Below are positions 12,221 to 58,102 of a stretch of 64,000 nucleotides of DNA, piece after piece; within the stretch, counting starts at the first letter, position 1, and each line of letters opens with the position of its first letter. The stretch is taken from positions 459 to 64,458 of the forward strand of contig JAUYEE010000330.1 of NCBI GenBank assembly GCA_030691545.1. Reading direction: 5' to 3'. A program made the position numbers and the translations under genes. The DNA is from a bacterium (lineage in GTDB: Bacteria; Auribacterota; JABMQX01). The notes under the pieces were generated by a model, which was not told where the DNA came from, made no database searches, and worked only from the letters and a program-made list of their open reading frames with translations.

Positions 12221-12223
12221 AGA

Positions 12224-13876: not shown

Positions 13877-13880
13877 AGCA

Positions 13881-14207: not shown

Positions 14208-14363
14208 AAAGGAATATTCTTGACAGGATGAACAGGATAGACAGGATTTTTAGGCATCGCCCAGCCGTTTCTGTGGCGATTGTACTGTGATCCTGTCTAA
14301 GAATATGTTCTGGATTTCGAGACCTCCTGTGTTCGGCGTGCTGACGAGAATAGGCTGTGAAAC

Positions 14364-14972
14364 ATGGAGTTTCCAAGAAGTTTGCAGGCGCTGATCGCGG
14401 AATTTAAGAGGCTGCCGGGCGTCGGCGAGAAGAGCGCGCGGCGGTATGCCTTTCACGTTCTCGAGAGCGGCGGGAAGAGCATGGGTGAGGCGATTGAGGC
14501 GGTCGGGACGAAGCTCCGGCGATGCGATACGTGCAGTGGGCTTTCCGAAGGCCCGTTGTGCAACATTTGTTCGGATGAGAGGCGGGATCACACCTCCATC
14601 TGCGTCGTCGAGAATTTCAAGGACGTGTATCGCATCGAGGAGACAAAGCAATTCAACGGGGTCTATCATGTCCTTGGCGGATTGGTTTCACCGATAGAGG
14701 GGATCGGACCCGAAGCCCTGCGGATTGGAGAATTGGTCGAGCGAGTGAAAGCCGGCGGAATCAACGAGGTCGTTCTGGCGACGGGCTCGTCCGTCGAGGG
14801 AGACGCGACCTGTCTGTACATCGCGAAGCTCCTGAAACCGTTCGGAGTGAAGCTTACGCGGTTGGCGGCGGGTCTCCCCGTCGGCGGCGAGATAGAGTCC
14901 GCCGACCCGAATACGCTGAGCCGCGCTGTGGCCGGAAGGACGGCGTTCAGCACGCCTGATGGCGAGCCATAG
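14364..14972 (+). CDS. recR: Recombination protein RecR
   Basis: HhH (LPGVGEKSARR), C4 zinc finger (CDTCSG...CNIC) and Toprim (ICVVE...) elements. Confidence 0.95.
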   Translation: MEFPRSLQALIAEFKRLPGVGEKSARRYAFHVLESGGKSMGEAIEAVGTKLRRCDTCSGLSEGPLCNICSDERRDHTSICVVENFKDVYRIEETKQFNGVYHVLGGLVSPIEGIGPEALRIGELVERVKAGGINEVVLATGSSVEGDATCLYIAKLLKPFGVKLTRLAAGLPVGGEIESADPNTLSRAVAGRTAFSTPDGEP

Positions 14973-17181: not shown

Positions 17182-17365
17182 TTCGGTTTTGGGGTGTGGG
17201 GGTTGGGGGTTCGGGATTCGGGTGTTGGGCGGTACAGTCCCGTTGAGGTAACGCCGCCGTCTCGGCGGCACTCTCGAGGGCGTCTCGCCCTCGGAATCGG
17301 GGGCAAGATGCCCCCGAGACAGCCGGCAAGATGCCGGCGGTACAGCAGGAGATGGTAAAACCGCG

Positions 17366-19681: not shown

Positions 19682-19799
19682 TTTCGGATTGGGAATCTGC
19701 TTGGTGTCTTCGTGCCTTGGTGGTTAGCTGCTTGGGGTCCTTACCACGAAGGACACGAAGGGCACGAAGAGAGAAAAGCGCGAAGGGCGCAGACGGCAG

Positions 19800-22289: not shown

Positions 22290-22375
22290 GAGAAGTAGCG
22301 CAGGCGTCTCGCCTGCATGCTGCAAGCCGGAGGCTTGCGCCACATCATTCTGCGTTACCCCGAAGGAGAACAACC

Positions 22376-25968: not shown

Positions 25969-27108
25969 ATGAACATGGGCGAAACCACAAAGGACGCGAA
26001 GGGCGGGTTTAGGGGTTGGGGGATAGGGTTTGGCGACCCGGAATGCCCAATTCACGGTCCTCTACTCCCGAAACCCGAAACGCCATACCCCAAACCCGAA
26101 ACCCCGACCCCAAACCCCCGACCTGTCGCGGCGGTTGTGACAGCGTTGGCGGTTCTGGTCTGCCTCGCCGTGCAGGCGCCGAACGGATGGGGGGCCTTGT
26201 CCGCCGAGGCGAAGCAGGCGGTCGAGAAGGGACTCGATTATCTGGCGAAAACGCAGGGGTCGGACGGCTCGTGGCCGGACCACTACGGGAAAAGCCCGGC
26301 GGTTGTGGGGCTGGCGGCACTTGCGTTCATGGCTCACGGAGAAATGCCGGGCAGAGGGAAATACAAAGAGACGCTGGAGAGGGCGATTGACTACATCCTA
26401 AAACAGTCGCAGGAAAACGGGTTGATTGCCCGACCGGGAAGTCAGCCGATGTATGACCATGGCTTCGCGACGCTGGCGCTGGCGGAAGCATACGGCATGT
26501 CCAAAAGGAAGGACCTGGAGGTCGCACTTCTGCGAGCCGTGCGGCTGATCGAGCGTGTCCAGAACCTGCGCGGAGGATGGCGCTACCAGCCCCGGCCGGC
26601 AGACGACGACGTCACGGTGACGGGCTGCCAGTTGATGGCTCTGCGCGCCGCAAGGAACGCGGGCGTGAACGTCCAGAGCCTCGTTGTCCGGAGAGGGGTG
26701 GACTACATCAAGTCGTGCGCGTGTGCGGACGGCGGGTTCGCGTATCAGCCGGGAGGGTCGTCGGGGAAGGCAAGGACGGGCATAGGTGTTCTTCTGCTCC
26801 AGTTGCTTGGCGAAAGCGAATCGGCGCTTGTGGGCAAGGGAGCCGAGTATCTTGCCCAGAATCCCCTGCGTCCCGGGGAGACCTATTACTATTACGGGCT
26901 CTATTACTGCACGCAGGCCATGTTCCAGAAGGGGGGGGAATCCTGGCAGTCCTGGCGGAAGGAGGTTCTGGAAACCGTGGTCTCAACTCAAGTCGCGGAC
27001 GGGAGCTGGCCGAAGCAAGGCAGCGAGGGCGGCGATACGTATGCGGTGGCGATGGCGATCCTTGCCCTCGAGGTCGAATGGAAGTTACTCCCGATCTACC
27101 AGCGGTGA
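25969..27108 (+). CDS. Prenyltransferase / squalene-cyclase-like repeat (alpha-alpha toroid) protein
   Basis: Repeated DGSWPD / GGWRYQ / DGGFAYQ / DGSWPKQ motifs typical of the terpene cyclase/mutase repeat family. N-terminal Pro/Thr-rich linker. Confidence 0.65.
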   Translation: MNMGETTKDAKGGFRGWGIGFGDPECPIHGPLLPKPETPYPKPETPTPNPRPVAAVVTALAVLVCLAVQAPNGWGALSAEAKQAVEKGLDYLAKTQGSDGSWPDHYGKSPAVVGLAALAFMAHGEMPGRGKYKETLERAIDYILKQSQENGLIARPGSQPMYDHGFATLALAEAYGMSKRKDLEVALLRAVRLIERVQNLRGGWRYQPRPADDDVTVTGCQLMALRAARNAGVNVQSLVVRRGVDYIKSCACADGGFAYQPGGSSGKARTGIGVLLLQLLGESESALVGKGAEYLAQNPLRPGETYYYYGLYYCTQAMFQKGGESWQSWRKEVLETVVSTQVADGSWPKQGSEGGDTYAVAMAILALEVEWKLLPIYQR

Positions 27109-40869: not shown

Positions 40870-40951
40870 ATAAACTGGCGGATCAGGCGTCTAAATTAAA
40901 GAAAAGGAACAGGAATTGCATCGTCTGGCGCAATAGATGGAGGATAGAACC

Positions 40952-41239
40952 ATGAAGAAGTTGGTTCTCGGTGCTGTTCTGGCAGGCACGTTGCTTTTCG
41001 CGCTCGTGCCGTCGGCGAACGCTCAGTATTACGGTCGCAGGAGTTACTACCGGCCGCCGTACCGAGGATACGTGTACCAGCACAGGTACTATGTGCCGCG
41101 GCCCTATTACCGCCCGTACCGTTGGTATCCGAGATCCTACTACTATCCGGGATACTACCAGTCCTATTATCCGCGGTACTACTATCCGCCGGCGCCGACC
41201 TATTACGGGCCGGGATGGGGCGTGTCGGTCTGGTGGTAA
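40952..41239 (+). CDS. Small secreted Tyr/Arg/Pro-rich low-complexity protein
   Basis: Signal peptide MKKLVLGAVLAGTLLFALVPSANA, then YYGRRSYYRPPYRGYVYQHRYYVPRPYYRPYRWYPRSYYYPGYYQSYYPRYYYPP. GGAGGA RBS before ATG 40952. Confidence 0.45.
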   Translation: MKKLVLGAVLAGTLLFALVPSANAQYYGRRSYYRPPYRGYVYQHRYYVPRPYYRPYRWYPRSYYYPGYYQSYYPRYYYPPAPTYYGPGWGVSVWW

Positions 41240-41430
41240 GCGGCGCCTTCTGACGCGGGTTGACGAAGCGCCGGAAGACCTCTCATTCGGAGGGAAACAG
41301 AGGTCAACGCCGCGCGGCGTTGGAGAAGGTCGCATGCGGCGTCGTAAGGTTCTGGCCCCAATGGGTCTGTTGAGGGCGCAAATGTGCGCCCTTTTTGTTC
41401 TCTATGCATGCCCCTGCCCGTGGAAGGGTC

Positions 41431-42561
41431 CTACTCGATGCCGGTCTCGTATATCCTGTACTTCTTGTAGGCAATCCCCCCGGCCCTCTCGAGCGCTTTG
41501 TTGATGAGGACATTGTCCTCGAGGGTCCATGACATTTCGGCGGTGTTGTAGCCCGCTCGAAGGACGGCGCGGGCGGTTTCGGTGATGAGGAGGGCGGCGA
41601 GACCGCGCTTCTGGAACTCCGGTCGGATGGCCAGGAGAATGACACGGACCTGCTCGGCTTTTCGGAGCGCGCGGAGGAACGAGATGAAGCGAAATGGGAA
41701 AAGCTTTCCGTTGACTCGCTTAAAAGCAGGGGAAACGTCGGGGAGCGTCAGCGAGAAGCCCGCGGGCACACCGTTTACCTCGAGAATCAGGACAAGCTGA
41801 GGATTGACGATGGGCTTGAATTGTCGGACCGTGTGGTCGAATTCGGCTTGGGTCATGGGGACGAATCCCCAGTTCGCGCTCCACGACGCGTTGTAGATTT
41901 CCCGAATGCGCTCCGTTTCTTCGCTCCAGGCCTTCATGTTCACATTCCGCACGCGGACATCCTTGCGCTCGCTGAAGAGTTTCACCAGCGGCTCGTATTT
42001 CTCCCAGACGAAGAGGTCCTCCCTGATGAGGTAGGCGTGAAGGTCCTTCGCTTTGTGGAGTCCGCAACTCTCGGCGAATTCAAGGTAATATTCCGGGGTG
42101 TAGGGCATCATCGTAACGGGCGACTTGTCGAATCCTTCGAGGAGGAAGCCGCAGACTTCATTGGTGGAGAAGTTCATCGGACCCCGCATGGAGGTCATGC
42201 CCCTTTCCCGCAGCCACCGGGCGGCTGTCTCATAGAGCTTCTGCGCGGCAGTGAGGTCGGGAAGGCATTCGAAGAAACCGAAAAAACCGACGCGGTCTTT
42301 GTAGAACTGGTTGTGGCTTCTGTTGATGAGGGCGGCGATCCGCCCGAGAGGCTCGCCTCCTTTGAGGGCAAGGAAGAGCTGCACCTCACTGTGCTCGTAG
42401 AAAGGATTTTTTCGTGGATCGAAGCGGTGGAGTTCGTCGCGGATCAGAGGGGGGACCCAAAGAGGACTTGCGCGATACACGTTCCAGGGGAATTTGATGA
42501 ACGTTTTGAGGGCGCGGTTGTCCTGAACGGGCCGGATGAAAACTGCTTCCCCATTCGTCAT
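41431..42561 (-). CDS. GNAT-like acyltransferase (candidate bacterial ceramide synthase-like)
   Basis: About 376 aa with an acyl-CoA N-acyltransferase-like pattern. Translationally coupled (4-nt overlap) to the upstream alpha-oxoamine synthase gene. Confidence 0.45.
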   Translation of the reverse strand: MTNGEAVFIRPVQDNRALKTFIKFPWNVYRASPLWVPPLIRDELHRFDPRKNPFYEHSEVQLFLALKGGEPLGRIAALINRSHNQFYKDRVGFFGFFECLPDLTAAQKLYETAARWLRERGMTSMRGPMNFSTNEVCGFLLEGFDKSPVTMMPYTPEYYLEFAESCGLHKAKDLHAYLIREDLFVWEKYEPLVKLFSERKDVRVRNVNMKAWSEETERIREIYNASWSANWGFVPMTQAEFDHTVRQFKPIVNPQLVLILEVNGVPAGFSLTLPDVSPAFKRVNGKLFPFRFISFLRALRKAEQVRVILLAIRPEFQKRGLAALLITETARAVLRAGYNTAEMSWTLEDNVLINKALERAGGIAYKKYRIYETGIE

Positions 42562-43739
42562 ATCAACCCGAACTCTTTGCCGACTTTCTCAAACACCTCG
42601 AGCACCTGATCGAGCTCCTCGTCGGTATGGGTCGCCATGTAACTGGTTCGAATCAGGCTTTCCCCCGGGGGGACGGCCGGGGTAATGATGGTATTAGCAT
42701 AGACACCATTGTCGAGCAGCGCCCGCCAGAAACGGAACGTGGCTTCGTTCTCCCCGATCTTGATGGGGATGATGGCTGTCGCAGAGTCGCCGGTGTCAAA
42801 GCCGAGGGCGTCGAATTCCTTTTTCATGCGGGTGTAGATGTCCGTGAGGCGCGCTCGGCGCTCCGGCTCGTTCTCGATGATGTCAAGGGCGGCAAGGGCG
42901 GCGGCGACAGCGGGCGGAGGCATACTGGCGCTGAAAATCAGCGTCCGGCAGTTGTGCTTGAGGTAGTGGATTACGGATTCTTCACCGGCCAGGAAACCGC
43001 CGAGGGAGGCGAAGGATTTGCTGAAGGTGCCCATGACGAGGTCCACGTCATCCTCGAGTCCGAAGTGGCTGGCAGTTCCGTCACCGTGTTTGCCGATAAC
43101 TCCGATGGCATGGGCGTCATCCACGAGGATTCTTGAGGAGTACTTCTTTGCCACTCGGACAAGGTCGGGAAGGTTCACAATGTCGCCGCCGATGCTGAAG
43201 ACACCATCCACCGCGATGAGTTTGCCGCCGTTGTTGTCACTTTCGCGGAGGATTCTGTCCAGGTCCTCCATGTCATTGTGCTTGAACTTATAGACCTTTC
43301 CGAAGCACAGGCGTGTCCCTTCAACGATGCTGGCGTGGTCCTCCCGGTCTATGTAAACCGCGTCGCCCCGGCCGACCAGTGTGGAAATGCCGCCGAGGTT
43401 TGTCTGGAAACCCGTGCTGAACACCAGGGCAGCCTGTTTGTGCATGAACGCGGCGAGGCGTCTCTCCAGCTCGACGTGAATGTCGAGGTTCCCGTTGAGA
43501 AAACGAGAGCCGGTGCATCCGGAGCCATATTTCTTGATTGCTTCGATAGCGGCTTGGGTGACTTTCGGGTGGGTAGTGAGGCCCAAGTAGTTGTTGGAGC
43601 CAATCATGATGACTTTTCTGCCGTCAATGATGGCTTTCGTCCCGAGGCTGGATTCGACTTCCGAGAAGAACGGATAAAGCCCGGCGGCCATTGCTTCCCG
43701 GGCAACAGTGTAGTTGCGGCACTTTTCAAAGAGGTCCAT
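42558..43739 (-). CDS. PLP-dependent alpha-oxoamine synthase (serine palmitoyltransferase / BioF / Kbl family)
   Basis: SNNYLGL, the GSRFLNG motif, AALVFSTGFQTN, DDAHAIG, and the PLP-lysine region GTFSKSFASLGG. Confidence 0.85.
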   Translation of the reverse strand: MDLFEKCRNYTVAREAMAAGLYPFFSEVESSLGTKAIIDGRKVIMIGSNNYLGLTTHPKVTQAAIEAIKKYGSGCTGSRFLNGNLDIHVELERRLAAFMHKQAALVFSTGFQTNLGGISTLVGRGDAVYIDREDHASIVEGTRLCFGKVYKFKHNDMEDLDRILRESDNNGGKLIAVDGVFSIGGDIVNLPDLVRVAKKYSSRILVDDAHAIGVIGKHGDGTASHFGLEDDVDLVMGTFSKSFASLGGFLAGEESVIHYLKHNCRTLIFSASMPPPAVAAALAALDIIENEPERRARLTDIYTRMKKEFDALGFDTGDSATAIIPIKIGENEATFRFWRALLDNGVYANTIITPAVPPGESLIRTSYMATHTDEELDQVLEVFEKVGKEFGLI

Positions 43740-44083
43740 GCTGTCTCCGGGTTGGGATTTTGATATTGCTGTTCTTCAGATGAAAAGCTATTCTCGCCAC
43801 GGCAAATCGCCCTGTGCTTCGACCTTTGTGTCTTTGTGCCTTTGTGGCAACGGTCCGAAGCATCTAACCACGAGGACACGAAGGCACCGAATCCGCTCCA
43901 CGACGATATTGCCGAGGCCAGGCCCAAAAACTGCCCGATGTGGGAAAGTTTTTGCCGAAACGCTACGAAAAACGGCGGGAATTGTAAACAAATTTATTCC
44001 GGCCCGCTTCGTGTGTCTTCGTCTCTTCGTGGTTGGGGCCTCGGGTCCCCACGCACTGGACACGGACACACACGGACACACAC

Positions 44084-45061
44084 ATGAAAGCGCTCGTGAC
44101 GGGAGCAACTGGTTTTGTTGGCAGCCATCTCGTCGAGGAACTGGTCCAGCGAGGGCATGAGGTTCACTGTCTCGTCCGTCGGACCAGCAACCTCCAATGG
44201 CTGAAGGGGTTGCCCGTGCGGTTGGTTTATGGAGACGTCGCCTCAAAGGAGTCCCTGGGAGCAGCCGTTGCAGGGAAGGACTACATTTATCACGTCGCGG
44301 GGGTGATTCAAGGAAAAAGCCAGTGGGCATTTGACCGCGCCAACTTCTTCGGGACGGTCAACCTGCTGAGAGCGTGCTGGAGATACAACGCCGGCGTGAG
44401 GAGGTTTGTGCTGGTCAGCAGCCTCAGCGCCGGGGGACCGAGCGGGCGAAGGCGACCTGTCCGGGAAGAAGACCCACCGCGGCCGATATCCCTTTACGGA
44501 AAAAGTAAATGGAAGGCGGAACAGGCCGCAGGGGAGTTCATCGGGCGATTCCCTCTGACAATTGTGCGGCCGCCAGCGATCTTCGGTCCACGAGACCGCG
44601 GCATGTACCCGTTTTTCAAAGCTCTGAAAAAGGGTATCGTCGTCCGTGTCGCGGGAGAGAGGAAAGCCAACTTCGTTTATGTGAAGGACGTGGTGGCAGG
44701 GACAATTCTTGCCGGGGAAGCGGAAGTGGCTATCGGGCAAACGTATTACATTGCGGGTGAACGGGCGTACACGTGGCGGGAATTCGCACAGACGGCGGCT
44801 CGCGTGGCAGGGCAAGCGGTCAGGGAGATCGTCGTCCCGGCACGAGTAGTACGCGCGGTCGGGGTGTTCAACAGCGTTGCGGCGGCGTTAACCGGGAAGG
44901 CGAGGATGCTCGACTGGCAAAAGTCCCGGGAGATTCTGCAACCGTACTGGTTGTGTGACACCTCGAAGGCGAAGAGGGAATTGGGGTATCAGCCAACGTA
45001 CTCATTGGAGCAAGGTCTGACCGAAACGATTCGGTGGTACGAGGAAGAAGGTTGGCTGTGA
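44084..45061 (+). CDS. NAD-dependent epimerase/dehydratase-family reductase
   Basis: MKALVTGATGFVGSHLVEEL Rossmann start, YxxxK-type extended SDR fold. Confidence 0.85.
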   Translation: MKALVTGATGFVGSHLVEELVQRGHEVHCLVRRTSNLQWLKGLPVRLVYGDVASKESLGAAVAGKDYIYHVAGVIQGKSQWAFDRANFFGTVNLLRACWRYNAGVRRFVLVSSLSAGGPSGRRRPVREEDPPRPISLYGKSKWKAEQAAGEFIGRFPLTIVRPPAIFGPRDRGMYPFFKALKKGIVVRVAGERKANFVYVKDVVAGTILAGEAEVAIGQTYYIAGERAYTWREFAQTAARVAGQAVREIVVPARVVRAVGVFNSVAAALTGKARMLDWQKSREILQPYWLCDTSKAKRELGYQPTYSLEQGLTETIRWYEEEGWL

Positions 45062-45261: not shown

Positions 45262-48200
45262 CTACTCCGACACCACCCGGTAGAACCGTGAGGAGCTGTC
45301 AGGAGGGAGACTGCCTGTCCAGGTGGTGGCGATGATAGGCCACGTCGTCCCCTCCACATTGGTCCAGGACCCAGCAGTCAGGTCATCGCTGCATTGGACG
45401 ACGTAGTATCCGGTTCCAAATCTGCCCCAGGAAAAAGTCACCCGTCCATCGTGGAGAATCTCCAGCGAACGAATCTTGTCCTCAACGGGTTTCCCGGAGA
45501 CAATGATCCTGTCCACCGCCCACCAGAAATCGTGATGTGTATTGTGAAAGCGCCAACGGAATCGGACCCGTTTGCCGTCCGCGAGAGTGGCGATATCGAA
45601 CGTCAAAGGCTCCGCGGAACTCAGGTCTCCGAAGGAGCGGTCGCGCTGGAAGATGGTCAGCCAGTCGGACCAGAGTCCGGTCTGAGGATGATAGGTGGAA
45701 ATGTCGAAATCCGTCGTCTGGAGGTCGCCCTCCTCGTCTCCCTCATGGATGTTGATGTGGCTGGAGAATTCGACCGAGACTGCGCTGTATGCGGAGCAGT
45801 TGATGGCAGGCGAGACAAGTTCCTCGTCGAGGAAAGTGTCTGGCGCGAAGTCGCCGTTGGAGACCATGTAGTTGCTGCTCATTCCGGGGAGGTCCGGGCC
45901 GGGCTGGCCCCAGGCTGTGGTGAGGACTTCGCCCTGGGTGTTCCACAACTGCCAGGCGCCGTCCGAGGGAGTCGCTGAGGTGACTGTCCAGCCGCCCGCG
46001 GACTGGACTTCATCGGTTTCCGCATAACGTTCGAAGTCCTCTCCGAAGATGACGTTTCGCCCCTCGAGGGACCAATCGTAGCCAAGAGCCATGTAATCAT
46101 AATCGGCACTTCCAGACGTCAGTTTCATTCTCAGGACATGAATGCCTTTCCCTGAGAAGAAAGGCTGGAGGGAAAAAGAAGTCCAGTCTCTCCAGCCGCC
46201 GGGGGTGTTGTACGTGAGGTCGCCGACGGGCTCTTCGTCCCAAGAGAACTCGAGAGTGGCACTGGCGGCGCCGCTGGTCGCACCTCGATAGACAAGCTTG
46301 ACATATCCGGCGACGGGAACATCGAATGTGTATCGCCACCAGTCGCCCGGGGTAGAGTAGCCCATGAACCAGCCGCTGGAGTCCTCGCCGGGCCGAATGT
46401 CCACGGCATCCTGGGGGCGGTAGGTGTTGCTGCGAGACGCGCTCTGGTAGAAATAGTCCACATCTGGGGCGAGGTTGTTTGTGTCCGAAGCTTCCACGGC
46501 GGACGGAGCCGCGGGTCCGCCGGGGAAATGCCCGCCGCCATAGTTGTAATCCTCAGCTTCCCGGATTTCCACGAGAGGAGCAGTTTGGGGAAAGGTGCTT
46601 GGAGCGGATTCGATGGGGCCCCGCGCGCCCGCCGGGTTTTCCGCAGTTACCCTGTAAACGTAGGAGACGCCGGGCCGGATGGTCCGGTCAAAGAAGGGGG
46701 TCTGGGGTTGGGGGTCTGGGGTCGGTGGGAGGGGGCCGGGAATTTCGGTCCACGTGATGCCGTCGGTACTGCGATAGACGTGATAGGCAATGACGTTTTC
46801 GTCGGGACTGGCAGTCCAGGAGACAATTGCGCCGTCAAGCATCTCAACGCCAACTGAGGACGGAGCAGCGGGAAGGGGGTAAAGGGTCGCGGGACCAAGG
46901 ATGTCTTGATTTGCTTCACTCCCGTAAGAAAGATACCCGCTGAAGTTCGCGGGCGACGATAAACCCTTCGGAATACCGAGCACGTAGGTGATGGCGCGGC
47001 TCGAGACCTTGCCCCCGGAGAACGTCCAGACCAGCCGGCCCGGAACGGAGGCGTCAGCCCCGGCGGGATCAAGGACAGCGATGTTTCCCCCGGTGAAAGT
47101 CTCCGTCACGACGAGGGTGGCGGGTCGGGAAGGGGTGTTGACGTCAATGTGGAGAGATACGGCGGATGTCGAACCCGGTGTGTAGTGAGAGGCAAGCTGC
47201 CGCGTGCAGACGATAGCGGGCGCCGGGAGGCTCTCCGCCGGGCCGAGCTCCGTGGACCAGTCCTCCGGGACATGCCCGGCGCCGGGCTGATACAGCAGAA
47301 TGCGGTCTATCCGGTAACCGTCCTCCCGGCAACGGATGTTAAGAGTGTAGGAGCCGGGCTGAGGAAAAACCAACGGTTCCGATGCCGGCCCCGGGCACCA
47401 CGCCCACCGGTTATAATTTTCTGCGTTGTCAAATTGGGAGATGACCGCGTTGCCGTTGATGCCGATTCGGCACGAGTTGTTTGTCGTTCCGTCGTGCCCG
47501 CGCCCATGCGGCACATATCGCCGAATTTTCAAGTAATACGTGCCCGCGTGCCGCAGTTCCACGTCGTAGCTGATCTCCGCGCCATTCTCCCAGTTCCGTA
47601 TGTTTGCGATGCCAGGAATGTCGGGGACCTCGACGTAGGTTGGGTCGCCCTCGAAAACCTGATAGGAGCCGCGGTCATCCCCATTGCGGTTGATGAAGGT
47701 GTAATTCTCGGCTTCGATGACGATGAGTCCGGACTTTTCCATGTGCGCCATGGTATTTACGACACTCCTCACAGAGACCGTGACTGTGTCAGTGCGGATG
47801 CTGTTCAGAGTGCCCAATTCATCGTCAACGGTGAGCTGGAAGATGAGGTCCTCGGAGAACGTCGCTACAGACGGGGCAGTAAAGGCGGGTCGAGGAGAAG
47901 AGGCTTCTGACAGGACGACGGAAGGCCCGCTGATTTGCCTCCAGTTGTAGGTGAGGCTGCCGGAAGTCGTCCGGGAACGTGTGCCGTCGAGCTGGGCGAT
48001 GCTGCCCTCGCGGGCGGCAAAGTCCGCGCCGGCGTCGGCTTTCGTGGCGATGTTGCGAATGATAATTTGGACTTCATCGTTTTTTTCATCGGTTCCGTCG
48101 CTGGCGGTGACAGTGAATCTCAGAAGGGTGTCTGAAGCGACGCCCGGAGCGACGAACGAGGCCAGGGGCGACTCCGCGTTGTCAATGGTGACGGCGGGAA

Positions 48201-50118
48201 GACCGTCCACCTGTCGCCAGCCGTAATTCATAATCGGCCCGCGAGTCGAGAAAGAGTAGCTGGCGTCGAGGACAGCGACGCTTCGTTCGTCAACCGCCCG
48301 ATCGAGGCCGTACACAACGAGCGGGTCGCGCTTCTGGTTGCCATAAACCTCCAGCTCCGCGACCGAGGTGAACCCGGCGACTCCTCCCGGGTAGCCGTAG
48401 AGCCGGACGCCCCGCGCTCGCACGGTTTGGAATGCAATATCGAAACGCGAGTAAGCCGTGCGTCCGAGTCGGGAGTCGGTGAAATCGTAAGGAGGAGAGA
48501 TCGCGACGTTCGGCGCCTCTTCCCAGGTGACGCCGTCTTCAGTGAACTGAACCGTGAGGTTAGTCCACCACCCTCCATCGTCGAAATGCATCCCTTCGTA
48601 ATAGACAATTTGGTCGAGGTACAGCGGCTCAGACCACAGGTAGCCGAACCAGTCTTCGTCGAGAGTCTCGTAGCCGTCGAAGGTGTCATAATTTTCGAGG
48701 AGGATTCCATTATTAATGGCGTTGAGGTTCTTCACACCCCCGCCGGTGGGGGAGCTGACGAGGGCGATTGGGATGGCGTCGGGCCGACGAGCGAGGTTGG
48801 GCATGGCGGTGACGGACACCTCGTTTGAAAGGGGTCCCTCGTGCGGGGGAAACGAGTTTTTTCCCGCGACCCGATAGTAATAGGTGACCCCCTCCTCAAG
48901 GAACCTGTCCTCGGCTGACGTGCCGCCGACGAAGGGCCGGATAGTCTGAAAGGAGGACATCGTGCCGTCGGGCAGTTGCTCGGCCCTCTTGACAACATAG
49001 CCATCGGCGTCGGGGATTGATCCCCAGTGAAGTGTCACGGAAAGGTGACCGACTTCCGCGGTGAGGTTGAGGGGAGGAACCGTCGGCGGATTTGTCGCTC
49101 TCACAGTGACAGTGGTGATGTCAGAATCCCAGCCAGTGGGGCCGGAGATGATCAGTCGGAAGGTCAAGATGACGGCAATGTCGAGGGGGGGCGCGACAAA
49201 TGGAGCGATGGACTGATCCGGGGCGCTGAGGATGACCTCCGGCTCATCGCCAACCATCACCTGTTCCCAGTGATAGGTATCGGGGTTCCACGAGCGGGTC
49301 CCATCCAGGAGAACTGTGTCTCCCTCATAGACTGTCTGGTCCGGCGGAGCGATCGCGACCGTGGATGCCTCAAGCTCCGGGATATGGAAGTTGCCAAATG
49401 TGGCCGTTGCGAGGACGCCGCTGACGTGGCTCGTCAAACAGATACCGACGTAAACCGGATTGGTCATGGCGAGCGAGTGGGTATTTTGGAAGGGGCGTTC
49501 CCAAGTTTCCCCGTCGTCGCTCCACCAGCCGGTGAACTCATTTCCGTTGCGGACGATTCGCAGCCAGATGGGGTATATGATGGGATTGCCGGGTTCGGAT
49601 TGTCCCGTCCAGGAAGCTAGAGAATTCGCCTTGTCTCTCCACTGGAACGCGACGCCATTGTCGCGGGTGGCAACGAGGTAAACGTCCTTGGAGCCGGGGG
49701 TGAGGTCCTGGCGAACCATGATGCCGGCTTTCGACCAGGAATGGGGCCAGCGCCCCTCAGGGTTGTCCACTCTCACGGAGACGGAGAAATCGCCGGACAT
49801 CTCGACGTAGAGGAAACGGAAATCGTCCTGGCTATCCCAGATGTCGTGTCCGTTGGCGGTTACGGTGTAGGTGTCGGTGAGCGGCTCATAGACGGTTGTG
49901 CCGGGAGTGGAGTCCCGGCCGAGAATGTCCGCGGACGTGAAAGGATACTCCACCCCCACGCTCACGGAGGTGAGGAGAAGGAACGACAAAATGCTCAGCG
50001 GTACGTGCGCCCGCACGGCACAATCCCTCGGTTCGGCGACAGGCTTTTTCTGATAAGAGTCATCCGGAGACGCGACAGGTGCGAAGGCGCGCCCACCGAC
50101 GATAGGGCGAAGCTCCAC
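45262..50118 (-). CDS. Giant secreted multi-domain protein (FN3/PKD-like repeats, carbohydrate-binding-like modules, C-terminal ...RFYRV domain)
   Basis: 1618-aa ORF, N-terminal signal-like region, many Ig-like repeats. Ends SSRFYRVVSE, like the 3969-6647 gene. Confidence 0.6.
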   Translation of the reverse strand: MELRPIVGGRAFAPVASPDDSYQKKPVAEPRDCAVRAHVPLSILSFLLLTSVSVGVEYPFTSADILGRDSTPGTTVYEPLTDTYTVTANGHDIWDSQDDFRFLYVEMSGDFSVSVRVDNPEGRWPHSWSKAGIMVRQDLTPGSKDVYLVATRDNGVAFQWRDKANSLASWTGQSEPGNPIIYPIWLRIVRNGNEFTGWWSDDGETWERPFQNTHSLAMTNPVYVGICLTSHVSGVLATATFGNFHIPELEASTVAIAPPDQTVYEGDTVLLDGTRSWNPDTYHWEQVMVGDEPEVILSAPDQSIAPFVAPPLDIAVILTFRLIISGPTGWDSDITTVTVRATNPPTVPPLNLTAEVGHLSVTLHWGSIPDADGYVVKRAEQLPDGTMSSFQTIRPFVGGTSAEDRFLEEGVTYYYRVAGKNSFPPHEGPLSNEVSVTAMPNLARRPDAIPIALVSSPTGGGVKNLNAINNGILLENYDTFDGYETLDEDWFGYLWSEPLYLDQIVYYEGMHFDDGGWWTNLTVQFTEDGVTWEEAPNVAISPPYDFTDSRLGRTAYSRFDIAFQTVRARGVRLYGYPGGVAGFTSVAELEVYGNQKRDPLVVYGLDRAVDERSVAVLDASYSFSTRGPIMNYGWRQVDGLPAVTIDNAESPLASFVAPGVASDTLLRFTVTASDGTDEKNDEVQIIIRNIATKADAGADFAAREGSIAQLDGTRSRTTSGSLTYNWRQISGPSVVLSEASSPRPAFTAPSVATFSEDLIFQLTVDDELGTLNSIRTDTVTVSVRSVVNTMAHMEKSGLIVIEAENYTFINRNGDDRGSYQVFEGDPTYVEVPDIPGIANIRNWENGAEISYDVELRHAGTYYLKIRRYVPHGRGHDGTTNNSCRIGINGNAVISQFDNAENYNRWAWCPGPASEPLVFPQPGSYTLNIRCREDGYRIDRILLYQPGAGHVPEDWSTELGPAESLPAPAIVCTRQLASHYTPGSTSAVSLHIDVNTPSRPATLVVTETFTGGNIAVLDPAGADASVPGRLVWTFSGGKVSSRAITYVLGIPKGLSSPANFSGYLSYGSEANQDILGPATLYPLPAAPSSVGVEMLDGAIVSWTASPDENVIAYHVYRSTDGITWTEIPGPLPPTPDPQPQTPFFDRTIRPGVSYVYRVTAENPAGARGPIESAPSTFPQTAPLVEIREAEDYNYGGGHFPGGPAAPSAVEASDTNNLAPDVDYFYQSASRSNTYRPQDAVDIRPGEDSSGWFMGYSTPGDWWRYTFDVPVAGYVKLVYRGATSGAASATLEFSWDEEPVGDLTYNTPGGWRDWTSFSLQPFFSGKGIHVLRMKLTSGSADYDYMALGYDWSLEGRNVIFGEDFERYAETDEVQSAGGWTVTSATPSDGAWQLWNTQGEVLTTAWGQPGPDLPGMSSNYMVSNGDFAPDTFLDEELVSPAINCSAYSAVSVEFSSHINIHEGDEEGDLQTTDFDISTYHPQTGLWSDWLTIFQRDRSFGDLSSAEPLTFDIATLADGKRVRFRWRFHNTHHDFWWAVDRIIVSGKPVEDKIRSLEILHDGRVTFSWGRFGTGYYVVQCSDDLTAGSWTNVEGTTWPIIATTWTGSLPPDSSSRFYRVVSE

Positions 50119-53214: not shown

Positions 53215-54147
53215 TTGGCCAAGGATAGATACATGGGTCTGGCAGCGTTAGTCCCTATCAATCGAGAATTTGTTCTGCGGAAATGCGCTTTGTTTCAGGA
53301 TGTGCACTTGTGGCCTCTCCGGCAAGAGTTAGATCCGGAACGCTGGCTGAGTAATTTTCTTCCTTCCGAGATCGATCACGCCGTCCACCTTCTGAACGCC
53401 TTCATGTACTTTAGCCGGGAGGTTATGAACCAGATGATGATCGCCGCTTTTCAGGGATTAAGTCACCTCCAGTGGTGGGGGAACGAGCCGTACATAAGCT
53501 CTCGTGCTGGGTGGCGATCATTCGTGGACAGCGTACTTATCACCTGCGTCACAGGAGAGCGCCCCAGCGACACGGACAGCGGGCACCATTTCCAAAGGAT
53601 GGCTCGGCAGGTTCTCGGGATTCCGGAACAGCGCATTTTGAGCCCTGAGGACACCCTTAGGGAGATTCTGAACCATGGACCTCGGTGCGTGGTCTTTGTT
53701 GATGATTTTGTGGGTTCTGGGAGGCAGTTCAGGACAACGTGGGCGCGCGACGTCGCCGTGACTAAGTCCGCATCGATCTCGTTCCAGAAGGTGGCGTCAA
53801 TCATGCCCGACAACAGGTTCTTTTATTGCCCCCTCATATGTACTCGTCACGGCGAGAGGGTGGTCCGAAACAAGTGCCCCGAAGTCGAGGTTTGTCCGGC
53901 ACACTTCCTAGAGCCCGAATATGGTGCCCTCTCGCCCGACAGCTTCGTTTGGCCCGATCATCTTCGCGCCTCGGCATACACCTTTCTTGAACAGGCAAGC
54001 GCTCGCGCCGGGATTGCCGACACTGAATGGCGAGGTATTGATGACCTTGGCTTGGTGCTCGCGTTCGAGCATAGTGTTCCGGACGCAGCCCTGAAAATGA
54101 TATATTGGGAGAAGAACAACTGGAAACCGCTGGTCAGGAGAAAATGA
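53215..54147 (+). CDS. Phosphoribosyltransferase-like protein (island gene 1)
   Basis: VVFVDDFVGSGRQF resembles the PRPP-binding motif of type-I PRTases. The rest is unrecognised. TTG at 53215 or ATG at 53233. Confidence 0.4.
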   Translation: MAKDRYMGLAALVPINREFVLRKCALFQDVHLWPLRQELDPERWLSNFLPSEIDHAVHLLNAFMYFSREVMNQMMIAAFQGLSHLQWWGNEPYISSRAGWRSFVDSVLITCVTGERPSDTDSGHHFQRMARQVLGIPEQRILSPEDTLREILNHGPRCVVFVDDFVGSGRQFRTTWARDVAVTKSASISFQKVASIMPDNRFFYCPLICTRHGERVVRNKCPEVEVCPAHFLEPEYGALSPDSFVWPDHLRASAYTFLEQASARAGIADTEWRGIDDLGLVLAFEHSVPDAALKMIYWEKNNWKPLVRRK

Positions 54148-56063
54148 GCAAGCAACCGCGCCCGCTAACAGCTGTGGAACAGGTTAGCCGGTGGTTCGGC
54201 AGCTTCAAGGCCGAATGGCTCAGGGAGCAGATGTACGATCTGTTTACAGAGCCTTCGTATTTTCCGGAAGTCACCTCCCCCCGTCCGTGCGTGCTGTTGG
54301 GGGGCCGAGGAACCGGCAAGACGACGGTGCTCCGCTGCATGTCCTACGAAGGCCGTTTCGCCTTGACGGGCGAGGCAATCGATGGCGTGCCAAAGTGGCC
54401 GTACTATGGCTTCTACCTGCGAGTGAATACGAACAGGGTCACAGCTTTCAGTGGCCCTGAGCTGACGGACGAAAGGTGGACGCGTGCATTCGGGCATTAT
54501 TTTAACCTCGTCCTGTGCACGCTTGTCTTTCGTTTCTTGGAGTGGTATCAGCTGCGCTGTCCCCAATCGGACTCGCTGAAGCCGAACGACTGCGCCGAGG
54601 TCGCGGCGAGTCTGCATCTAGGAGATTTGACGACCCTGCGTGATTTGCTGGCAGGTGCTCGTCGGGCATTGGTGGACTTCGAAGCATGCCTAAACAACGT
54701 GGCCGAGGGAAAACTGCCGCCACTTTCCATGCAGGGCGCCCCGCTCGATGCCCTCTTCGAGGCCTTGCCTCGCCTGCCGGACTTTGTCCACAAGACGTTT
54801 TTCTTTCTGATCGACGAATATGAGAACTTCCTTGATTACCAGCAGCGTGTCGTTAACACTCTCATAAAGCATTCCGGAGAGGCCTACACTTTCAAGGTGG
54901 GGGTCAGAGAGCTTGGTTGGCGGTGCCGCACCACGCTAAACGAAAACGAGCAACTGATCCATCCCGCAGACTATGAGCGCATCCATATCCAGGAGAAGTT
55001 GGATGGCGAGCCTTTCGTCAAACTGGCGCTTCAAGTATGTAATGAGCGAATAAAGAGATTGCGTATCCCAAGAAAACGTGTACCGAACCTCGAACAGCTT
55101 TTGCCTCCCCTCGACGAAGACGAGGAAGCGGAGTTACTTGATGAGGGCAGCGGAAAGTTAGAGGCGGCCGCACGGGAGCTGTCTCGAGCCGTCCCGCCGG
55201 AAGACTCCCCTCTGCTTCAGACACTGACCCCGCTTCAAAAGTACTTCTTGCTCTGTTGGTCGCAAGGCAAGGCGATGCCGCTGGAGCAGGTCTGGCGGCA
55301 GTTCCTGGACTCCACGGTCGAGCACGAAACGCGGTACATGAATTACAAGCACTCGATATTGTATACGTTACGACGCGGCAAGCGAGGCATCCAGAAGTAT
55401 TACAGCGGGTGGAGGGTATTTACCCAGTTGGCCGCATGCAATATCAGATACTTCTTGGAGCTCGTCGTGCAGAGCCTTCTGACCGCCCTCGAACACACTG
55501 GCCGGCTTGACAAGCCCATTTCGGCCAAGATTCAAACGCTCGCTGCTCAGGCTGTGGGCAAGAAGAATCTGTCTGAGCTCGAAGGCCTGAGTGTCTACGG
55601 GGGGCAGCTGACGAAACTGCTGTTGGGCTTGGGCCGGGTTTTTCAGACCATGGCCTCTGAACCACTCGGTCACGCACCGGAGGTAAATCAGTTCCACCTT
55701 GTGGACGGTGACCCACTGTACAGTGAGACCAAGACCGGCACTGATCAACCTGACGAAGTTGAATGTCTCTTGACATCCGCCGTGATGCACCTTGCTCTCC
55801 TGCGAAGTCCAGGAAGTAAGCTGGCAGACGAGACAGAGACTAAGGACTACGACTACATGATTCACCCTATTTTCAGCCCCTTCTTCGTTTTCAGCCACCG
55901 GCGCAAGAGGAAGATGTCTCTGAGGCGCGATCAGCTGCTGGGCCTCGTACACCATCCCAAAAAGACGATCCGGGAAATACTCGCGGCCCAGAACCGCGCG
56001 ACCGAGGACCCCTTGCCGGAGCAGTTATTGATGTTCCAAGGCTACTACGATGCCGATTCGTGA
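54144..56063 (+). CDS. P-loop NTPase (island gene 2)
   Basis: Walker A GGRGTGKTT. Walker-B-like FFFLIDEYENF about 190 aa later. ATGA start/stop overlap with gene 1. Confidence 0.6.
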   Translation: MSKQPRPLTAVEQVSRWFGSFKAEWLREQMYDLFTEPSYFPEVTSPRPCVLLGGRGTGKTTVLRCMSYEGRFALTGEAIDGVPKWPYYGFYLRVNTNRVTAFSGPELTDERWTRAFGHYFNLVLCTLVFRFLEWYQLRCPQSDSLKPNDCAEVAASLHLGDLTTLRDLLAGARRALVDFEACLNNVAEGKLPPLSMQGAPLDALFEALPRLPDFVHKTFFFLIDEYENFLDYQQRVVNTLIKHSGEAYTFKVGVRELGWRCRTTLNENEQLIHPADYERIHIQEKLDGEPFVKLALQVCNERIKRLRIPRKRVPNLEQLLPPLDEDEEAELLDEGSGKLEAAARELSRAVPPEDSPLLQTLTPLQKYFLLCWSQGKAMPLEQVWRQFLDSTVEHETRYMNYKHSILYTLRRGKRGIQKYYSGWRVFTQLAACNIRYFLELVVQSLLTALEHTGRLDKPISAKIQTLAAQAVGKKNLSELEGLSVYGGQLTKLLLGLGRVFQTMASEPLGHAPEVNQFHLVDGDPLYSETKTGTDQPDEVECLLTSAVMHLALLRSPGSKLADETETKDYDYMIHPIFSPFFVFSHRRKRKMSLRRDQLLGLVHHPKKTIREILAAQNRATEDPLPEQLLMFQGYYDADS

Positions 56064-56988
56064 CCATCCCCTCCCGACGCGTTGCTACGACCGAGTGGAA
56101 CGTTTCTCTCCAGAAATCGGGAGCGCGTACGTTTTCGGCAGGTCCGTTGAGGACAGGAGCGCGCATGTCGAGAAATGGACAGAACGTGGCGAGAGTGTGC
56201 AGTTCGTCCAAATTCTGGATGAAACACGCAATTCCTTTAGGATGGCGATCGCCGGGTGTTCGCAAGAAGTGCTTCTGAGGAGCAGCTCCCGACTGGCGGC
56301 TTTTTGGTCGAGTATTGACAGGCCGATGTGCTACCTCGATATCACCGGTTTGCCTCATCACATCTGGGCTCCTCTACTCCGCTCAGGATTGAGCGCCTGC
56401 CGGCGACTGGCCGCCGTGTACGTCGAACCGGCCGACTATCAGCTGAGCCCGGTCCCAACAGAGGGCGAGATTTTCGACCTCAGCGAAAAAATATCTGGCA
56501 TCGCCCCGATCCCTGGGTTTGCTTCGCTGACCGAGCCCGCTGACGAACGCGTATGCTTCGTTCCCTTATTGGGATTCGAGGGTATCCGCTTTGCGTATTT
56601 GGTTGAGCAGGTGCAGCCTCCAGGCGAGAGAATAATCCCCGTTATTGGCGTACCCGGATTTCGTCCCGAGTATCCTTTTCACGCCTTCCAGGCCAATATG
56701 TCAGTCCTCAAGGAGACCCAGGCTTGGAAGAGCGTGCGTTATGCCAGAGCCAACTGCCCTTTCAGCCTGTTCTACCTGTTGGAGGACATCGCAGAGCAGT
56801 ATCCGGAGCACCAGCTCAAGATCGCTCCCATTGGCACGAAACCGCATGCTTTGGGTGCCGTGCTGTTTGCCGCCACTAGCCGACGGCCGGTTGAACTCAT
56901 ATATGATCACCCCATTCGGAAGGCGAAGCGCACCAAGGACACGGGGCGGTTATTTGTATATTTCGTGTCGGCATTCGCTCAAGGGTGA
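56050..56988 (+). CDS. Hypothetical protein (island gene 3)
   Basis: Overlaps gene 2 by 14 nt. No family recognised. Confidence 0.4.
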   Translation: MPIRDHPLPTRCYDRVERFSPEIGSAYVFGRSVEDRSAHVEKWTERGESVQFVQILDETRNSFRMAIAGCSQEVLLRSSSRLAAFWSSIDRPMCYLDITGLPHHIWAPLLRSGLSACRRLAAVYVEPADYQLSPVPTEGEIFDLSEKISGIAPIPGFASLTEPADERVCFVPLLGFEGIRFAYLVEQVQPPGERIIPVIGVPGFRPEYPFHAFQANMSVLKETQAWKSVRYARANCPFSLFYLLEDIAEQYPEHQLKIAPIGTKPHALGAVLFAATSRRPVELIYDHPIRKAKRTKDTGRLFVYFVSAFAQG

Positions 56989-57007
56989 CATCCACCTGGA
57001 GCAGACA

Positions 57008-58102
57008 ATGGACCGGTTCTACACACCGCCGCAGCTTGCAGAAAAAGTGGTGCGAATGGCGTGCTCCGATGCACTGCCAGAACGGGTCGCCGACTTTGCT
57101 GCCGGCAGTGGCGGTTTGCTGCACGCAGCACTTACTCGGTGGCCGGGAGCGGAGATCGTCGCAACGGATATCGACCGGCAAGCCGTCGAGCACCTTCGCC
57201 GCTCAAATGCAACGTGGCGCGTCGGCAAATGCGACTTCCTCAACCGAAATTCGCGGGCGCGCTGTCGTGTCCTCTCTGAGATAAGGGGCGGTGTCCCCTT
57301 GGTTTTGCTAAACCCTCCTTTTTCGTGTCGCGGCGGCAGGCGATGGTCAGCCGGGCTGAATGGCACCGGTGTTCGCGTCAGCAAGGCATTAGCATTCGTA
57401 ATAACGGCAATATCATACCTGGCTCCCGAAGGGCAGATCGTCGCCATTCTTCCGGCAGGGACCGTGAGAAGCGATGGGGATCGGAGGGCCTGGGAACTGT
57501 TACGGGCGATTTGTTGCTGCAAGTCGGCAGCGATGGACGGGCGTAAGACCTTCGCGGGTTGCTACCCTCAGACTATCATAGTACGCTTGAAGCTACGCTC
57601 CCGCCATGTGCGGCTGGAAAAAGTCCGTCTGTGGCGCAGCGCATATGTGAAGGCAACCAAAGCGACCACAGTCTCCATCATACGGGGGACATTTCAGATG
57701 CACACCTTGCAGAGATACCGATCATCAAGCTCCGTGCCGCTACTCCACACCACTAGCCTTGACAGAACTGAGGTTGTCGCCCCGCGGGTGCGGGTGAGCA
57801 CGTCCAGAAGGAAAGTGAGAGGTCCCGCAGTCCTGTTGCCCAGAGTAGGACAGCCCGACCCGGCCAAAATCTGCCTTTACATGAAAAAGGAGCCTGTCGC
57901 GCTGTCGGACTGCGTGCTGGCTTTGCGCTGCACCACGTGCGCTGACGCCCGTTCGGTACGACAGGTGTTGCTCAAGAACTGGGGTGTCCTCGAAACACTT
58001 TACGGTGGTACATGCGCTCGATACATAACGATAATGCGTTTGACAAACCTGCTTGAATCCTGTGGATTGTCCGTTACGAGCGCCTCATCTGATCGGTCAT
58101 GA
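57008..58102 (+). CDS. N6-adenine DNA methyltransferase, gamma class (island gene 4)
   Basis: FYTPPQLAEKVV, motif I DFAAGSGGLL, motif IV LLNPPFS. GGAG RBS 8 nt before ATG 57008. Confidence 0.75.
   Translation: MDRFYTPPQLAEKVVRMACSDALPERVADFAAGSGGLLHAALTRWPGAEIVATDIDRQAVEHLRRSNATWRVGKCDFLNRNSRARCRVLSEIRGGVPLVLLNPPFSCRGGRRWSAGLNGTGVRVSKALAFVITAISYLAPEGQIVAILPAGTVRSDGDRRAWELLRAICCCKSAAMDGRKTFAGCYPQTIIVRLKLRSRHVRLEKVRLWRSAYVKATKATTVSIIRGTFQMHTLQRYRSSSSVPLLHTTSLDRTEVVAPRVRVSTSRRKVRGPAVLLPRVGQPDPAKICLYMKKEPVALSDCVLALRCTTCADARSVRQVLLKNWGVLETLYGGTCARYITIMRLTNLLESCGLSVTSASSDRS

Follow-up and report, generated by a model that had tools for sequence, protein, structure and literature searches.

The locus lies within a 64-kb stretch of DNA, referred to here as the window, and comprises three contiguous genes together with a putative promoter region and a possible terminator (Table 1). 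All three ORFs were found exactly where the preliminary description had placed them, and Pfam searches bear out the families it had named, with matches to Aminotran_1_2 for the alpha-oxoamine synthase (AOS; E=3.5e-62), Acetyltransf_1 for the GNAT protein (E=3.6e-8, C-terminal half only) and Epimerase for the extended SDR (E=9e-36, with 3Beta_HSD also matched). The end of the AOS gene and the beginning of the GNAT gene share 4 nt, ATGA (42558-42561), and because of this overlap it is accurate, at the level of sequence, to describe the two genes as translationally coupled, with the SDR gene transcribed divergently from the AOS gene as had also been proposed. The program-made SDR ORF (44033..45061, + strand) opens at a TTG at 44033; the true start is almost certainly the ATG at 44084 (MKALVTGATGFVG...), which matches the position at which all SDR homologues begin and gives the length of the NCBI protein, and the divergent AOS-SDR spacer is therefore 344 bp. 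The NCBI records are exact matches to the three gene products and carry the generic names "GNAT family N-acetyltransferase", "PLP-dependent aminotransferase family protein" and "NAD-dependent epimerase/dehydratase". Full-length homologues number in the hundreds, at 45-99% identity, and the three genes are real and conserved far beyond chance.

Table 1. Genes and non-coding features of the locus (window coordinates).
Feature	Position	Strand	Details
GC-rich hairpin, possible bidirectional terminator	41372..41393		terminator scan
GNAT protein, candidate bCerS-like tandem-GNAT N-acyltransferase	41431..42561	-	376 aa; MDP2898910.1
Spt-like alpha-oxoamine synthase (AOS), predicted PLP-dependent serine/acyl-thioester condensing enzyme	42558..43739	-	393 aa; MDP2898911.1
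Putative divergent AOS/SDR intergenic (promoter) region	43740..44083		344 bp
CerR-like extended SDR, candidate NAD(P)H-dependent 3-keto reductase	44084..45061	+	325 aa; MDP2898912.1

The spacer between the AOS and SDR genes contains short GT/CA-rich repeats, both direct and inverted, and an Rfam search of it returned no family. Alignment with a relative of 75% identity revealed a block of ~40 nt (~43962-44002; GGAATAAATTTGTTTACAATTCC... on the AOS strand) that is near-identical amid otherwise diverged sequence. At the other end of the locus, the hairpin follows the GNAT stop by ~40 nt and separates the GNAT gene from a convergent ORF for a small secreted protein. It could possibly serve as a bidirectional terminator, although promoter and terminator scans of the region returned no more sites than shuffled sequence and the evidence for a terminator is therefore weak. 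A 150-aa ORF past the end of the GNAT gene (40883-41335, - strand) was considered as a fourth gene of the operon and rejected, as it is Arg-rich, has no family match and runs antisense to a plausible signal-peptide ORF. The trio is flanked by proA/proB/proC and by a gene for a secreted PKD protein, and in relatives the trio is kept while the flanks differ.

The preliminary description had assigned the AOS to the Spt/BioF/Kbl family, and HMM scores, structure scores and a small NJ tree all indicate that it is of the Spt type. The highest scoring NCBIfam model was SerpalmtaseCFB (NF047600) at 540.3 bits, compared with 385 for bioF and 377 for Kbl, although the AOS falls under the equivalog cutoffs of all three Spt models (540.3 against 640 for NF047600, 413 against 500 for BetaP, and 330 against 670 for AlphaP). 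These models are built on narrow taxa, and a score below cutoff therefore weakens automatic naming but not functional inference. Among solved structures the best match was the Sphingobacterium Spt (PDB 3a2b/8guh; 448 bits over residues 3-389), followed by Kbl at 264, SulA-type cysteate acyltransferases at 263 and 243, BioF at ~215, ALAS at ~197 and CqsA at 135 bits. The closest characterised enzyme is the Sphingobacterium multivorum/Bacteroides Spt (3A2B, 8GUH; BT_0870-type), and the AOS shares ~49% identity with Bacteroides finegoldii Spt and ~38% with Sphingomonas Spt. When aligned to SmSpt, the PLP-site motifs are all retained, with DHASI carrying the stacking His, DDAH the Asp-x-x-His element and TFSKS the Schiff-base Lys. 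In the NJ tree (numpy NJ) the AOS joins Bacteroides Spt and further AOSs that are linked to a GNAT gene, apart from BioF and Kbl, with moderate bootstrap values of 55-72% for the Spt groupings. Sequence comparison thus places the AOS in the Bacteroidota/Myxococcota-type Spt subgroup and not with the alpha-, beta- or gamma-proteobacterial enzymes.

The GNAT protein is confidently predicted to adopt a tandem-GNAT fold, while a sequence search of the PDB with this protein gave nothing significant. Along ~97% of its length it shares 35.6% identity with E. coli YghO, its best-annotated homologue, and 34% with Sphingomonas "aca", and 34-36 of 40 family-invariant residues are in common. YghO and "aca" are in turn 44% and 41% identical, respectively, to Caulobacter CC_1154, at 97-98% coverage (PMC9386255 Supplementary Table 2). 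CC_1154 is the CerS/bCerS of Caulobacter, where it is genetically required. Through these E. coli and Sphingomonas intermediates, the sequence data support membership of the window protein in the bCerS (CC_1154) family, and the resemblance to bCerS that had been suggested for it extends over the full length of the protein. The Bacteroides homologue has diverged further, with 29% identity and 22 of the 40 invariant residues, and in E. coli chromosome records YghO was the sole match to the window GNAT. We also observed that Sphingomonas "aca" is an N-acetyltransferase located near spt.

Assignment of the SDR is less direct. The protein has a GxxGxxG Rossmann motif (GATGFVG, residues 6-12) and a Tyr-x-x-x-Lys motif (YGKSK), and its best NCBIfam model is HpnA (TIGR03466), at 162 bits against a cutoff of 368. 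It is 28-30% identical (around 29%) to proteobacterial CerR-type proteins and ~31% identical to genuine hpnA products from hopanoid clusters; the CerR-type proteins themselves also have HpnA as their best NCBIfam model, and HpnA and proteobacterial CerR both nest inside the same SDR radiation. CerR orthology is therefore unsupported by sequence, and since the protein is no closer to CerR than to HpnA, its proposed role rests mainly on conserved neighbourhood. The earlier identification of a CerR-like partner is supported by this neighbourhood and by the match to the E. coli cluster reductase. In two whole E. coli chromosomes the only match at E<=1e-20 was the ECD_02852-type reductase, ~2 kb from yghO, and in Nonomuraea the gene for the best SDR match immediately follows the one for the GNAT match. 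The SDR translation opens with the Rossmann motif and shows no evident signal peptide, and the same holds for the E. coli and Sphingomonas homologues. Caulobacter CerR has been reported to be periplasmic. BT_0972, the characterised 3-KDS reductase of Bacteroides, was rejected as a reference for this protein, as it is a classical Tsc10/FVT1-like SDR and belongs to a different family.

A GTDB scan centred on the GNAT protein listed 80 species genomes from >15 phyla, all of them MAGs and with GNAT identities of <=51%, so that no cultured reference was among the matches listed. A Spt-like AOS lay near the GNAT gene in 56 of the 80 loci listed, and in 46 it directly preceded the GNAT gene in the same orientation. 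The full AOS-GNAT-SDR trio was present in 41 of these 80 loci, in three layouts, with a further 13 having the AOS upstream of the GNAT gene but not this SDR; neither partner was found near the GNAT gene in 23, and one more had the SDR without the AOS. Contiguous trios also occur in Aureispira, where the arrangement is exactly that of the window, and in Rubrobacter, Streptomyces and Nonomuraea. In published work, co-localised Spt, bCerS and CerR genes are the mark of bacteria that produce ceramide (PMC11334938).

Taken with the protein homologies and the 4-nt overlap, both directly observed, this neighbourhood conserved across phyla points to a minimal three-gene module of the Bacteroidota/Myxococcota type that probably makes (dihydro)ceramide. 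In the proposed pathway the Spt-like AOS would condense L-serine with a long-chain acyl thioester to give 3-ketodihydrosphingosine and CO2, and since no dedicated AcpR or AasR is present, the acyl donor would be either acyl-CoA or a housekeeping acyl-ACP. The coupled tandem-GNAT protein, as a bCerS homologue, would then move a second acyl chain from acyl-CoA onto the amine, and the divergent SDR would use NAD(P)H to reduce the C3 ketone and yield dihydroceramide. Acylation may precede reduction or the reverse; the proposal for Caulobacter is that acylation comes first, followed by reduction. Substrates, product and step order are all inferred for the window trio.

The comparison with the Spt/bCerS/CerR set of Caulobacter, which the preliminary description had drawn, is supported by the AOS, GNAT and neighbourhood evidence. 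Both Caulobacter crescentus (Spt, CC_1162/CCNA_01220; bCerS/CerS, CC_1154/CCNA_01212; CerR, CC_1164/CCNA_01222) and the window have a PLP-dependent AOS, a GNAT protein of ~375-385 aa and an extended SDR starting at GxxGxxG, encoded by clustered genes. However, in Caulobacter bCerS is eight genes from spt whereas the window trio is contiguous, and unlike Caulobacter the window has no dedicated AcpR or AasR and no LptF2/G2 paralogues near the trio. The yghO cluster of E. coli (BL21 ECD_02850-02854), which encodes YghO, AasR, Epi, AcpR and Spt, also differs, being of the five-gene, ACP-dependent Rhodobacteria type with flanking LptF/G paralogues and having a BetaP-type Spt (600 bits to SerpalmtaseBetaP). 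Using E. coli and Sphingomonas queries in tblastn, we found neither AcpR nor AasR/FAAL in the 64-kb window, and because of their absence the locus is not of this five-gene type (Spt+AcpR+AasR+CerR+CerS). The three genes of the window form one compact unit, whereas Bacteroidota carry those for Spt, the bCerS-like protein and the reductase at scattered positions (PMC11334938).

A variation on the ceramide reading, to which we attach a small probability, is that a deep-branching lineage makes sphingolipids with an ACP-independent, wholly cytoplasmic trio whose ketoreductase is a separately recruited HpnA-like SDR and not a CerR orthologue. If true, bacterial ceramide synthesis would have acquired its reductase step on more than one occasion, with a reaction order or compartment unlike that of the Caulobacter model.

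It is unlikely that the trio instead makes another N-acyl amino-lipid, such as a capnine-type sulfonolipid, a 1-deoxy or glycine-derived base, or a diffusible acyl-amino-ketone signal, with the three reactions (condensation, N-acylation, ketoreduction) unchanged but a different amino acid or chain length. The AOS enzymes of sulfonolipid and sphingolipid synthesis are homologous with nearly identical active sites (PMC9304779), which, together with the matches to cysteate acyltransferases and CqsA and the sub-cutoff Spt scores given above, lends this some weight, and the Streptomyces trio adjoins a condensation-domain gene, a hint that some lineages may use the module in secondary metabolism. 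Nevertheless, the score to the Spt structure is nearly double those to the cysteate acyltransferases, and the AOS is accompanied by the GNAT and SDR types that act in ceramide synthesis. The criterion that separates SulA from Spt is Lys281, conserved in SulA (PMC9304779), and the window AOS, like Spt, appears to have Ala at this position (within FSASM, 30 residues after the Schiff-base Lys), as inferred through a gap-free offset. SulA and the cysteate acyltransferases represent a homologous AOS with analogous chemistry but a lower match to the window protein.

We consider it very unlikely that only the AOS and GNAT protein belong to a lipid pathway, with the SDR being an HpnA-like nucleotide-sugar or hopanoid-associated epimerase/dehydratase of unrelated role and the ketoreductase encoded elsewhere. 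Bacteroides does reduce 3-KDS with a classical Tsc10-like SDR (BT_0972; PMC9278070), and this possibility would also suit the HpnA model match, the equal similarity to hpnA products and to CerR-type proteins, and the 13 listed loci without this SDR. However, the HpnA score does not reach half of the cutoff for that family, HpnA is the best model for the proteobacterial CerR-type proteins as well, and the window has no hopanoid genes (shc, hpnC-H) next to the trio. The recurrence of the SDR with the AOS-GNAT pair in three arrangements across phyla, and the fact that its sole strong match in E. coli is the reductase of a sphingolipid cluster, likewise tie it to the Spt-bCerS genes. Finally, it is barely credible that the AOS simply serves biotin synthesis (as BioF) or threonine catabolism (as Kbl) beside an incidental GNAT neighbour. 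It is a member of a generic family, it shares 40-41% identity with Bacillus Kbl and Alicyclobacillus BioF, and JGI pipelines call close homologues "8-amino-7-oxononanoate synthase". However, scores to BioF and Kbl, by HMM and by structure alike, are far below those to Spt, the GNAT gene is overlapped and recurrently adjacent, and the neighbourhood lacks bioA/B/D/C and tdh, the kind of genes with which reference BioF and Kbl genes do share operons.

The ceramide module is a credible new instance, though an ordinary one, of a known bacterial route. Metagenomic surveys predict Spt-like proteins in ~40 phyla and often find bCerS and CerR genes near them (PMC11334938), and the trio leaves this picture unchanged. 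Reading the genes as Spt-, bCerS- and CerR-like nonetheless replaces the generic record names with a specific predicted phenotype, the production of ceramide by an uncultured bacterium. The compact, ACP-free trio would also be a convenient cassette for heterologous reconstitution, and could help to decide whether acylation precedes reduction outside Caulobacter. As a separate observation on the source organism, the nearest named matches to its RNase R were from Verrucomicrobiota, at 40-46% identity.

All three reading frames of the trio were found exactly where the preliminary description had placed them, and the translational coupling that it had claimed is borne out at sequence level by the stop codon of the Spt-like alpha-oxoamine synthase (AOS) gene, which overlaps the start of the bCerS-like GNAT gene as ATGA at 42558-42561. 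The mechanical ORF of the CerR-like extended SDR opens further upstream than the ATG at 44084, from which translation reads MKALVTGATGFVG..., in agreement with the deposited protein and with the starts of all homologues, leaving a divergent AOS/SDR spacer of 344 bp. The exact proteins have been deposited under generic names on a 136-kb MAG contig, and the locus is a new example, hitherto without sphingolipid annotation, of an already known pathway type. In the literature, bacterial ceramide producers are recognised by co-localised genes for Spt, bCerS and CerR, and a metagenomic survey predicted Spt-like proteins in ~40 phyla, among them Verrucomicrobiota, Planctomycetota and Chloroflexota, in many cases with genes for bCerS and CerR nearby (PMC11334938). 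The source organism's RNase R has a clade of metagenomic relatives at 64-96% identity, with its nearest named matches in Verrucomicrobiota (40-46%).

Coordinates of the trio and of other features in the window
Feature	Position	Strand	Details
VTC-domain protein, then DUF4956 protein	2207-3865	+	polyphosphate-associated pair
FMN riboswitch	6908-7032	+	116 bits; upstream of ribBA and ribH
ribBA, ribH	7170-8910
SRP RNA, large bacterial type	11428-11693	+	182 bits; followed by dnaX and recR
dnaX, recR	12224-14972
Bat-like operon	16285-25912	+	DUF58, BatA/VWA, VWA/GATase1-like, DUF4175
Alpha-alpha toroid protein	25969-27108		379 aa; prenyltransferase/SQHop-cyclase-C-like; after Bat-like operon
Small ORF	40937-41239	+	100 aa; between proC and GNAT gene
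GNAT gene	41431-42561	-	376 aa; MDP2898910
AOS gene	42558-43739	-	393 aa; MDP2898911
Conserved spacer block	43962-44002		~40 nt
SDR mechanical ORF	44033-45061	+	TTG start; MDP2898912 is 325 aa from ATG 44084
Giant secreted protein	45262-50118	-	1618 aa; DUF1349, F5/8-C, PKD, GH115_C, fn3, CBM35; adjoins trio
Defence-like gene island	53215-58102	+	ORFs overlapping or adjacent

To one side of the trio lie proA, a zinc-ribbon protein gene, proB and proC, and to the other the gene for a large secreted PKD/CBM protein. A 1574-aa homologue of this giant protein likewise adjoins the trio in L001, the 75%-identity relative (9436-14160). The small ORF beside the GNAT gene, which is probably the deposited MDP2898909.1, has a signal peptide followed by a mature part that is extremely rich in Tyr, Arg and Pro (YYGRRSYYRPPYRGYVYQ...), with no Pfam match. 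Within the AOS/SDR spacer, a block reading GGAATAAATTTGTTTACAATTCC...TTTTTCGTAGC on the AOS strand is near-identical in L001, the rest of the spacer having diverged. Since this block holds a short palindrome and a motif resembling TAnnTTTG, it is a possible promoter or operator. GT/CA-rich short repeats, direct and inverted, are present in the spacer too, with ACACGGACAC occurring twice directly before the SDR start.

Using Pfam, only the class I/II aminotransferase fold was recognised in the AOS. The top NCBIfam model was CFB-type serine palmitoyltransferase (540 bits), followed by BetaP Spt (413), a BioF/Kbl-related subfamily (408), bioF (385) and Kbl (377), with no NCBIfam model attaining its equivalog cutoff. 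Comparison with solved structures gave end-to-end alignment to Sphingobacterium Spt (3A2B and 8GUH; 448 bits), and lower scores for Sphingomonas Spts (~285-299), E. coli Kbl (264), cysteate acyltransferases (263 and 243), BioF (~215) and CqsA (135). The stacking His (DHASI), Asp-x-x-His (DDAHA) and Schiff-base Lys (TFSKS) are all kept. A rival reading, in which the trio makes a sulfonolipid or some other related lipid from a different amino acid, is disfavoured by the lead of Spt in these scores and by an active-site marker: SulA differs from Spt there only at Lys281, 30 residues past the Schiff-base Lys, which is Ala in Spt (PMC9304779), and, assuming a gap-free offset, we infer that the FSASM of the AOS puts Ala at this position, as in SmSpt.

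In the GNAT protein, Pfam recognised a GNAT domain in residues 217-350 only, and a PDB sequence search gave zero matches. It belongs to a very large, strongly conserved family, with at least 6877 matches among 8000 scored candidates, 45-51% identity across phyla and 40 invariant columns. The link to characterised enzymes was made using tblastn against plasmid records, which showed 35.6% identity to E. coli YghO across 98% of the length and 34% identity to a Sphingomonas parapaucimobilis N-acetyltransferase, with 36 and 34 of the 40 invariant residues present, respectively. The neighbours of yghO are fatty acyl-AMP ligase, SDR, ACP and AOS genes; E. coli K-12 lacks this cluster and has a disrupted yghO. 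The Sphingomonas gene order (SDR, ACP, Spt, ATP-binding protein, LptF, LptG, desaturase, N-acetyltransferase) agrees with S. paucimobilis locus tags DRN02_007875 to DRN02_007910 (PMC9386255). Both yghO/ECD_02850 and DRN02_007910 are listed as 'aca' homologues of Caulobacter CC_1154 (PMC9386255), at 44% and 41% identity, respectively, and 97-98% coverage (PMC9386255 Supplementary Table 2); CC_1154 is CerS, CC_1164 is CerR, and dihydroceramide formation requires both (PMC11324152). It is through these two homologues that the window's GNAT protein is linked to the characterised CC_1154.

The SDR is of the extended type (Epimerase, 3Beta_HSD) and carries the motifs GATGFVG and YGKSK. Among NCBIfam models it scores highest with HpnA, a hopanoid-associated sugar epimerase, reaching 162 bits where the cutoff is 368, and HpnA is likewise the top model for the reductases of the E. 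coli and Sphingomonas clusters. Identity is 28-30% to proteobacterial CerR-type proteins and ~31% to genuine hpnA genes of hopanoid clusters, and in an NJ tree the CerR-type and HpnA groups both fall inside the trio-linked SDR radiation. Since sequence alone is insufficient for CerR orthology, the putative CerR-type assignment is carried by gene context. A tblastn search of the plasmid collection served as a within-genome test because whole chromosomes are filed there as plasmids: for each of two E. coli chromosomes, the sole match at E<=1e-20 was a gene (757257-758135) ~2 kb from yghO (760269-761381), and in Nonomuraea the match directly follows the GNAT homologue. An unrelated, HpnA-like role for the SDR is disfavoured by its synteny with AOS-GNAT and by the lack of adjacent hopanoid genes in the window.

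The synteny scan used one genome per species and listed 80 GNAT-centred loci, all from MAGs, which span Latescibacterota, Zixibacteria, Ignavibacteria, Gemmatimonadota, Acidobacteriota, Planctomycetota, Verrucomicrobiota, Myxococcota, Bacteroidota, Chloroflexota and others. Among these listed loci a Spt-like AOS was present in 56 (directly upstream on the same strand in 46), an SDR in 42, and both in 41. The AOS>GNAT pair and SDR took three layouts, with the SDR divergent upstream, as in the window (19 loci), downstream on the same strand (10) or upstream on the same strand (4). The trio is retained while flanks differ between the 75%- and 49%-identical relatives, and it is contiguous in annotated records of Rubrobacter radiotolerans, Streptomyces sp. 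NBC_01001 and Aureispira anguillae, the last with a divergent layout identical to that of the window.

Several compared loci showed further arrangements. The Streptomyces and Rubrobacter AOS>GNAT>SDR operons (L096 and L090) lie on large Actinomycetota plasmids and are followed by a condensation-domain protein and an LTA-synthase-family protein, respectively, and a Priestia megaterium plasmid (L087) has a 53%-identical Spt-like AOS beside an acyltransferase and a methyltransferase, without a GNAT or SDR partner. In an Archangiaceae MAG (L031, 6358-9689) the SDR sits downstream of the AOS between two bCerS-like GNAT paralogues that are 47% and 41% identical to the window's GNAT protein. Directly after the trio in L003, the 49%-identity relative (9255-14540), are a LolA-like lipoprotein-sorting protein, two MacB/FtsX permeases and an ABC ATPase, which may form a dedicated lipid export system by analogy with the LptF/LptG paralogues that flank the clusters of E. 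coli and Sphingomonas (L085, L086).

A small NJ tree of AOS proteins was anchored by gene context, with Spt references from Sphingomonas and E. coli (sphingolipid clusters) and from Bacteroides finegoldii (adjoining a DAG-kinase-family gene), BioF references from E. coli and Alicyclobacillus (bio operons) and Kbl references from E. coli and Bacillus (beside tdh). The window's AOS fell on the Spt side, grouping with the Bacteroides Spt and further GNAT-linked AOSs, with moderate bootstrap values both for this clade (55%) and for the split of all Spt from BioF/Kbl (72%). That the AOS is a BioF or Kbl is effectively excluded, and no bio or tdh genes lie near the trio in the window.

The earlier reading of the trio as a candidate Spt/bCerS/CerR-type ceramide locus is supported, and a minimal ceramide-backbone module is the best-supported interpretation. 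The Spt-like AOS would condense serine with a long-chain acyl thioester, the predicted tandem-GNAT bCerS homologue would N-acylate the Spt product and the SDR would reduce the 3-keto group, with acylation and reduction in either order; in Caulobacter the order of N-acylation and ketoreduction is disputed (PMC11087976, PMC11324152). As AcpR and AasR homologues are absent from the 64-kb window, the locus fits the Bacteroidota/Myxococcota-type Spt subgroup and not the five-gene Rhodobacteria type (PMC9386255).

Elsewhere in the window, the defence-like island encodes two proteins recognised by PADLOC, a PRTase-CE (PRTase_III-A) and a CARF6-type protein (398 bits), together with an ORC-CDC6-like ATPase (Pfam, 457 bits) and a DNA methyltransferase. 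The toroid protein is not a full squalene-hopene cyclase, and zero tRNA genes were found across the entire 64 kb. GC skew is strong, sustained and positive from ~8000 to 50000 (~+0.1 to +0.24) and nearly all genes there are on the plus strand; the few on the minus strand include the AOS-GNAT pair and the gene for the PKD protein.
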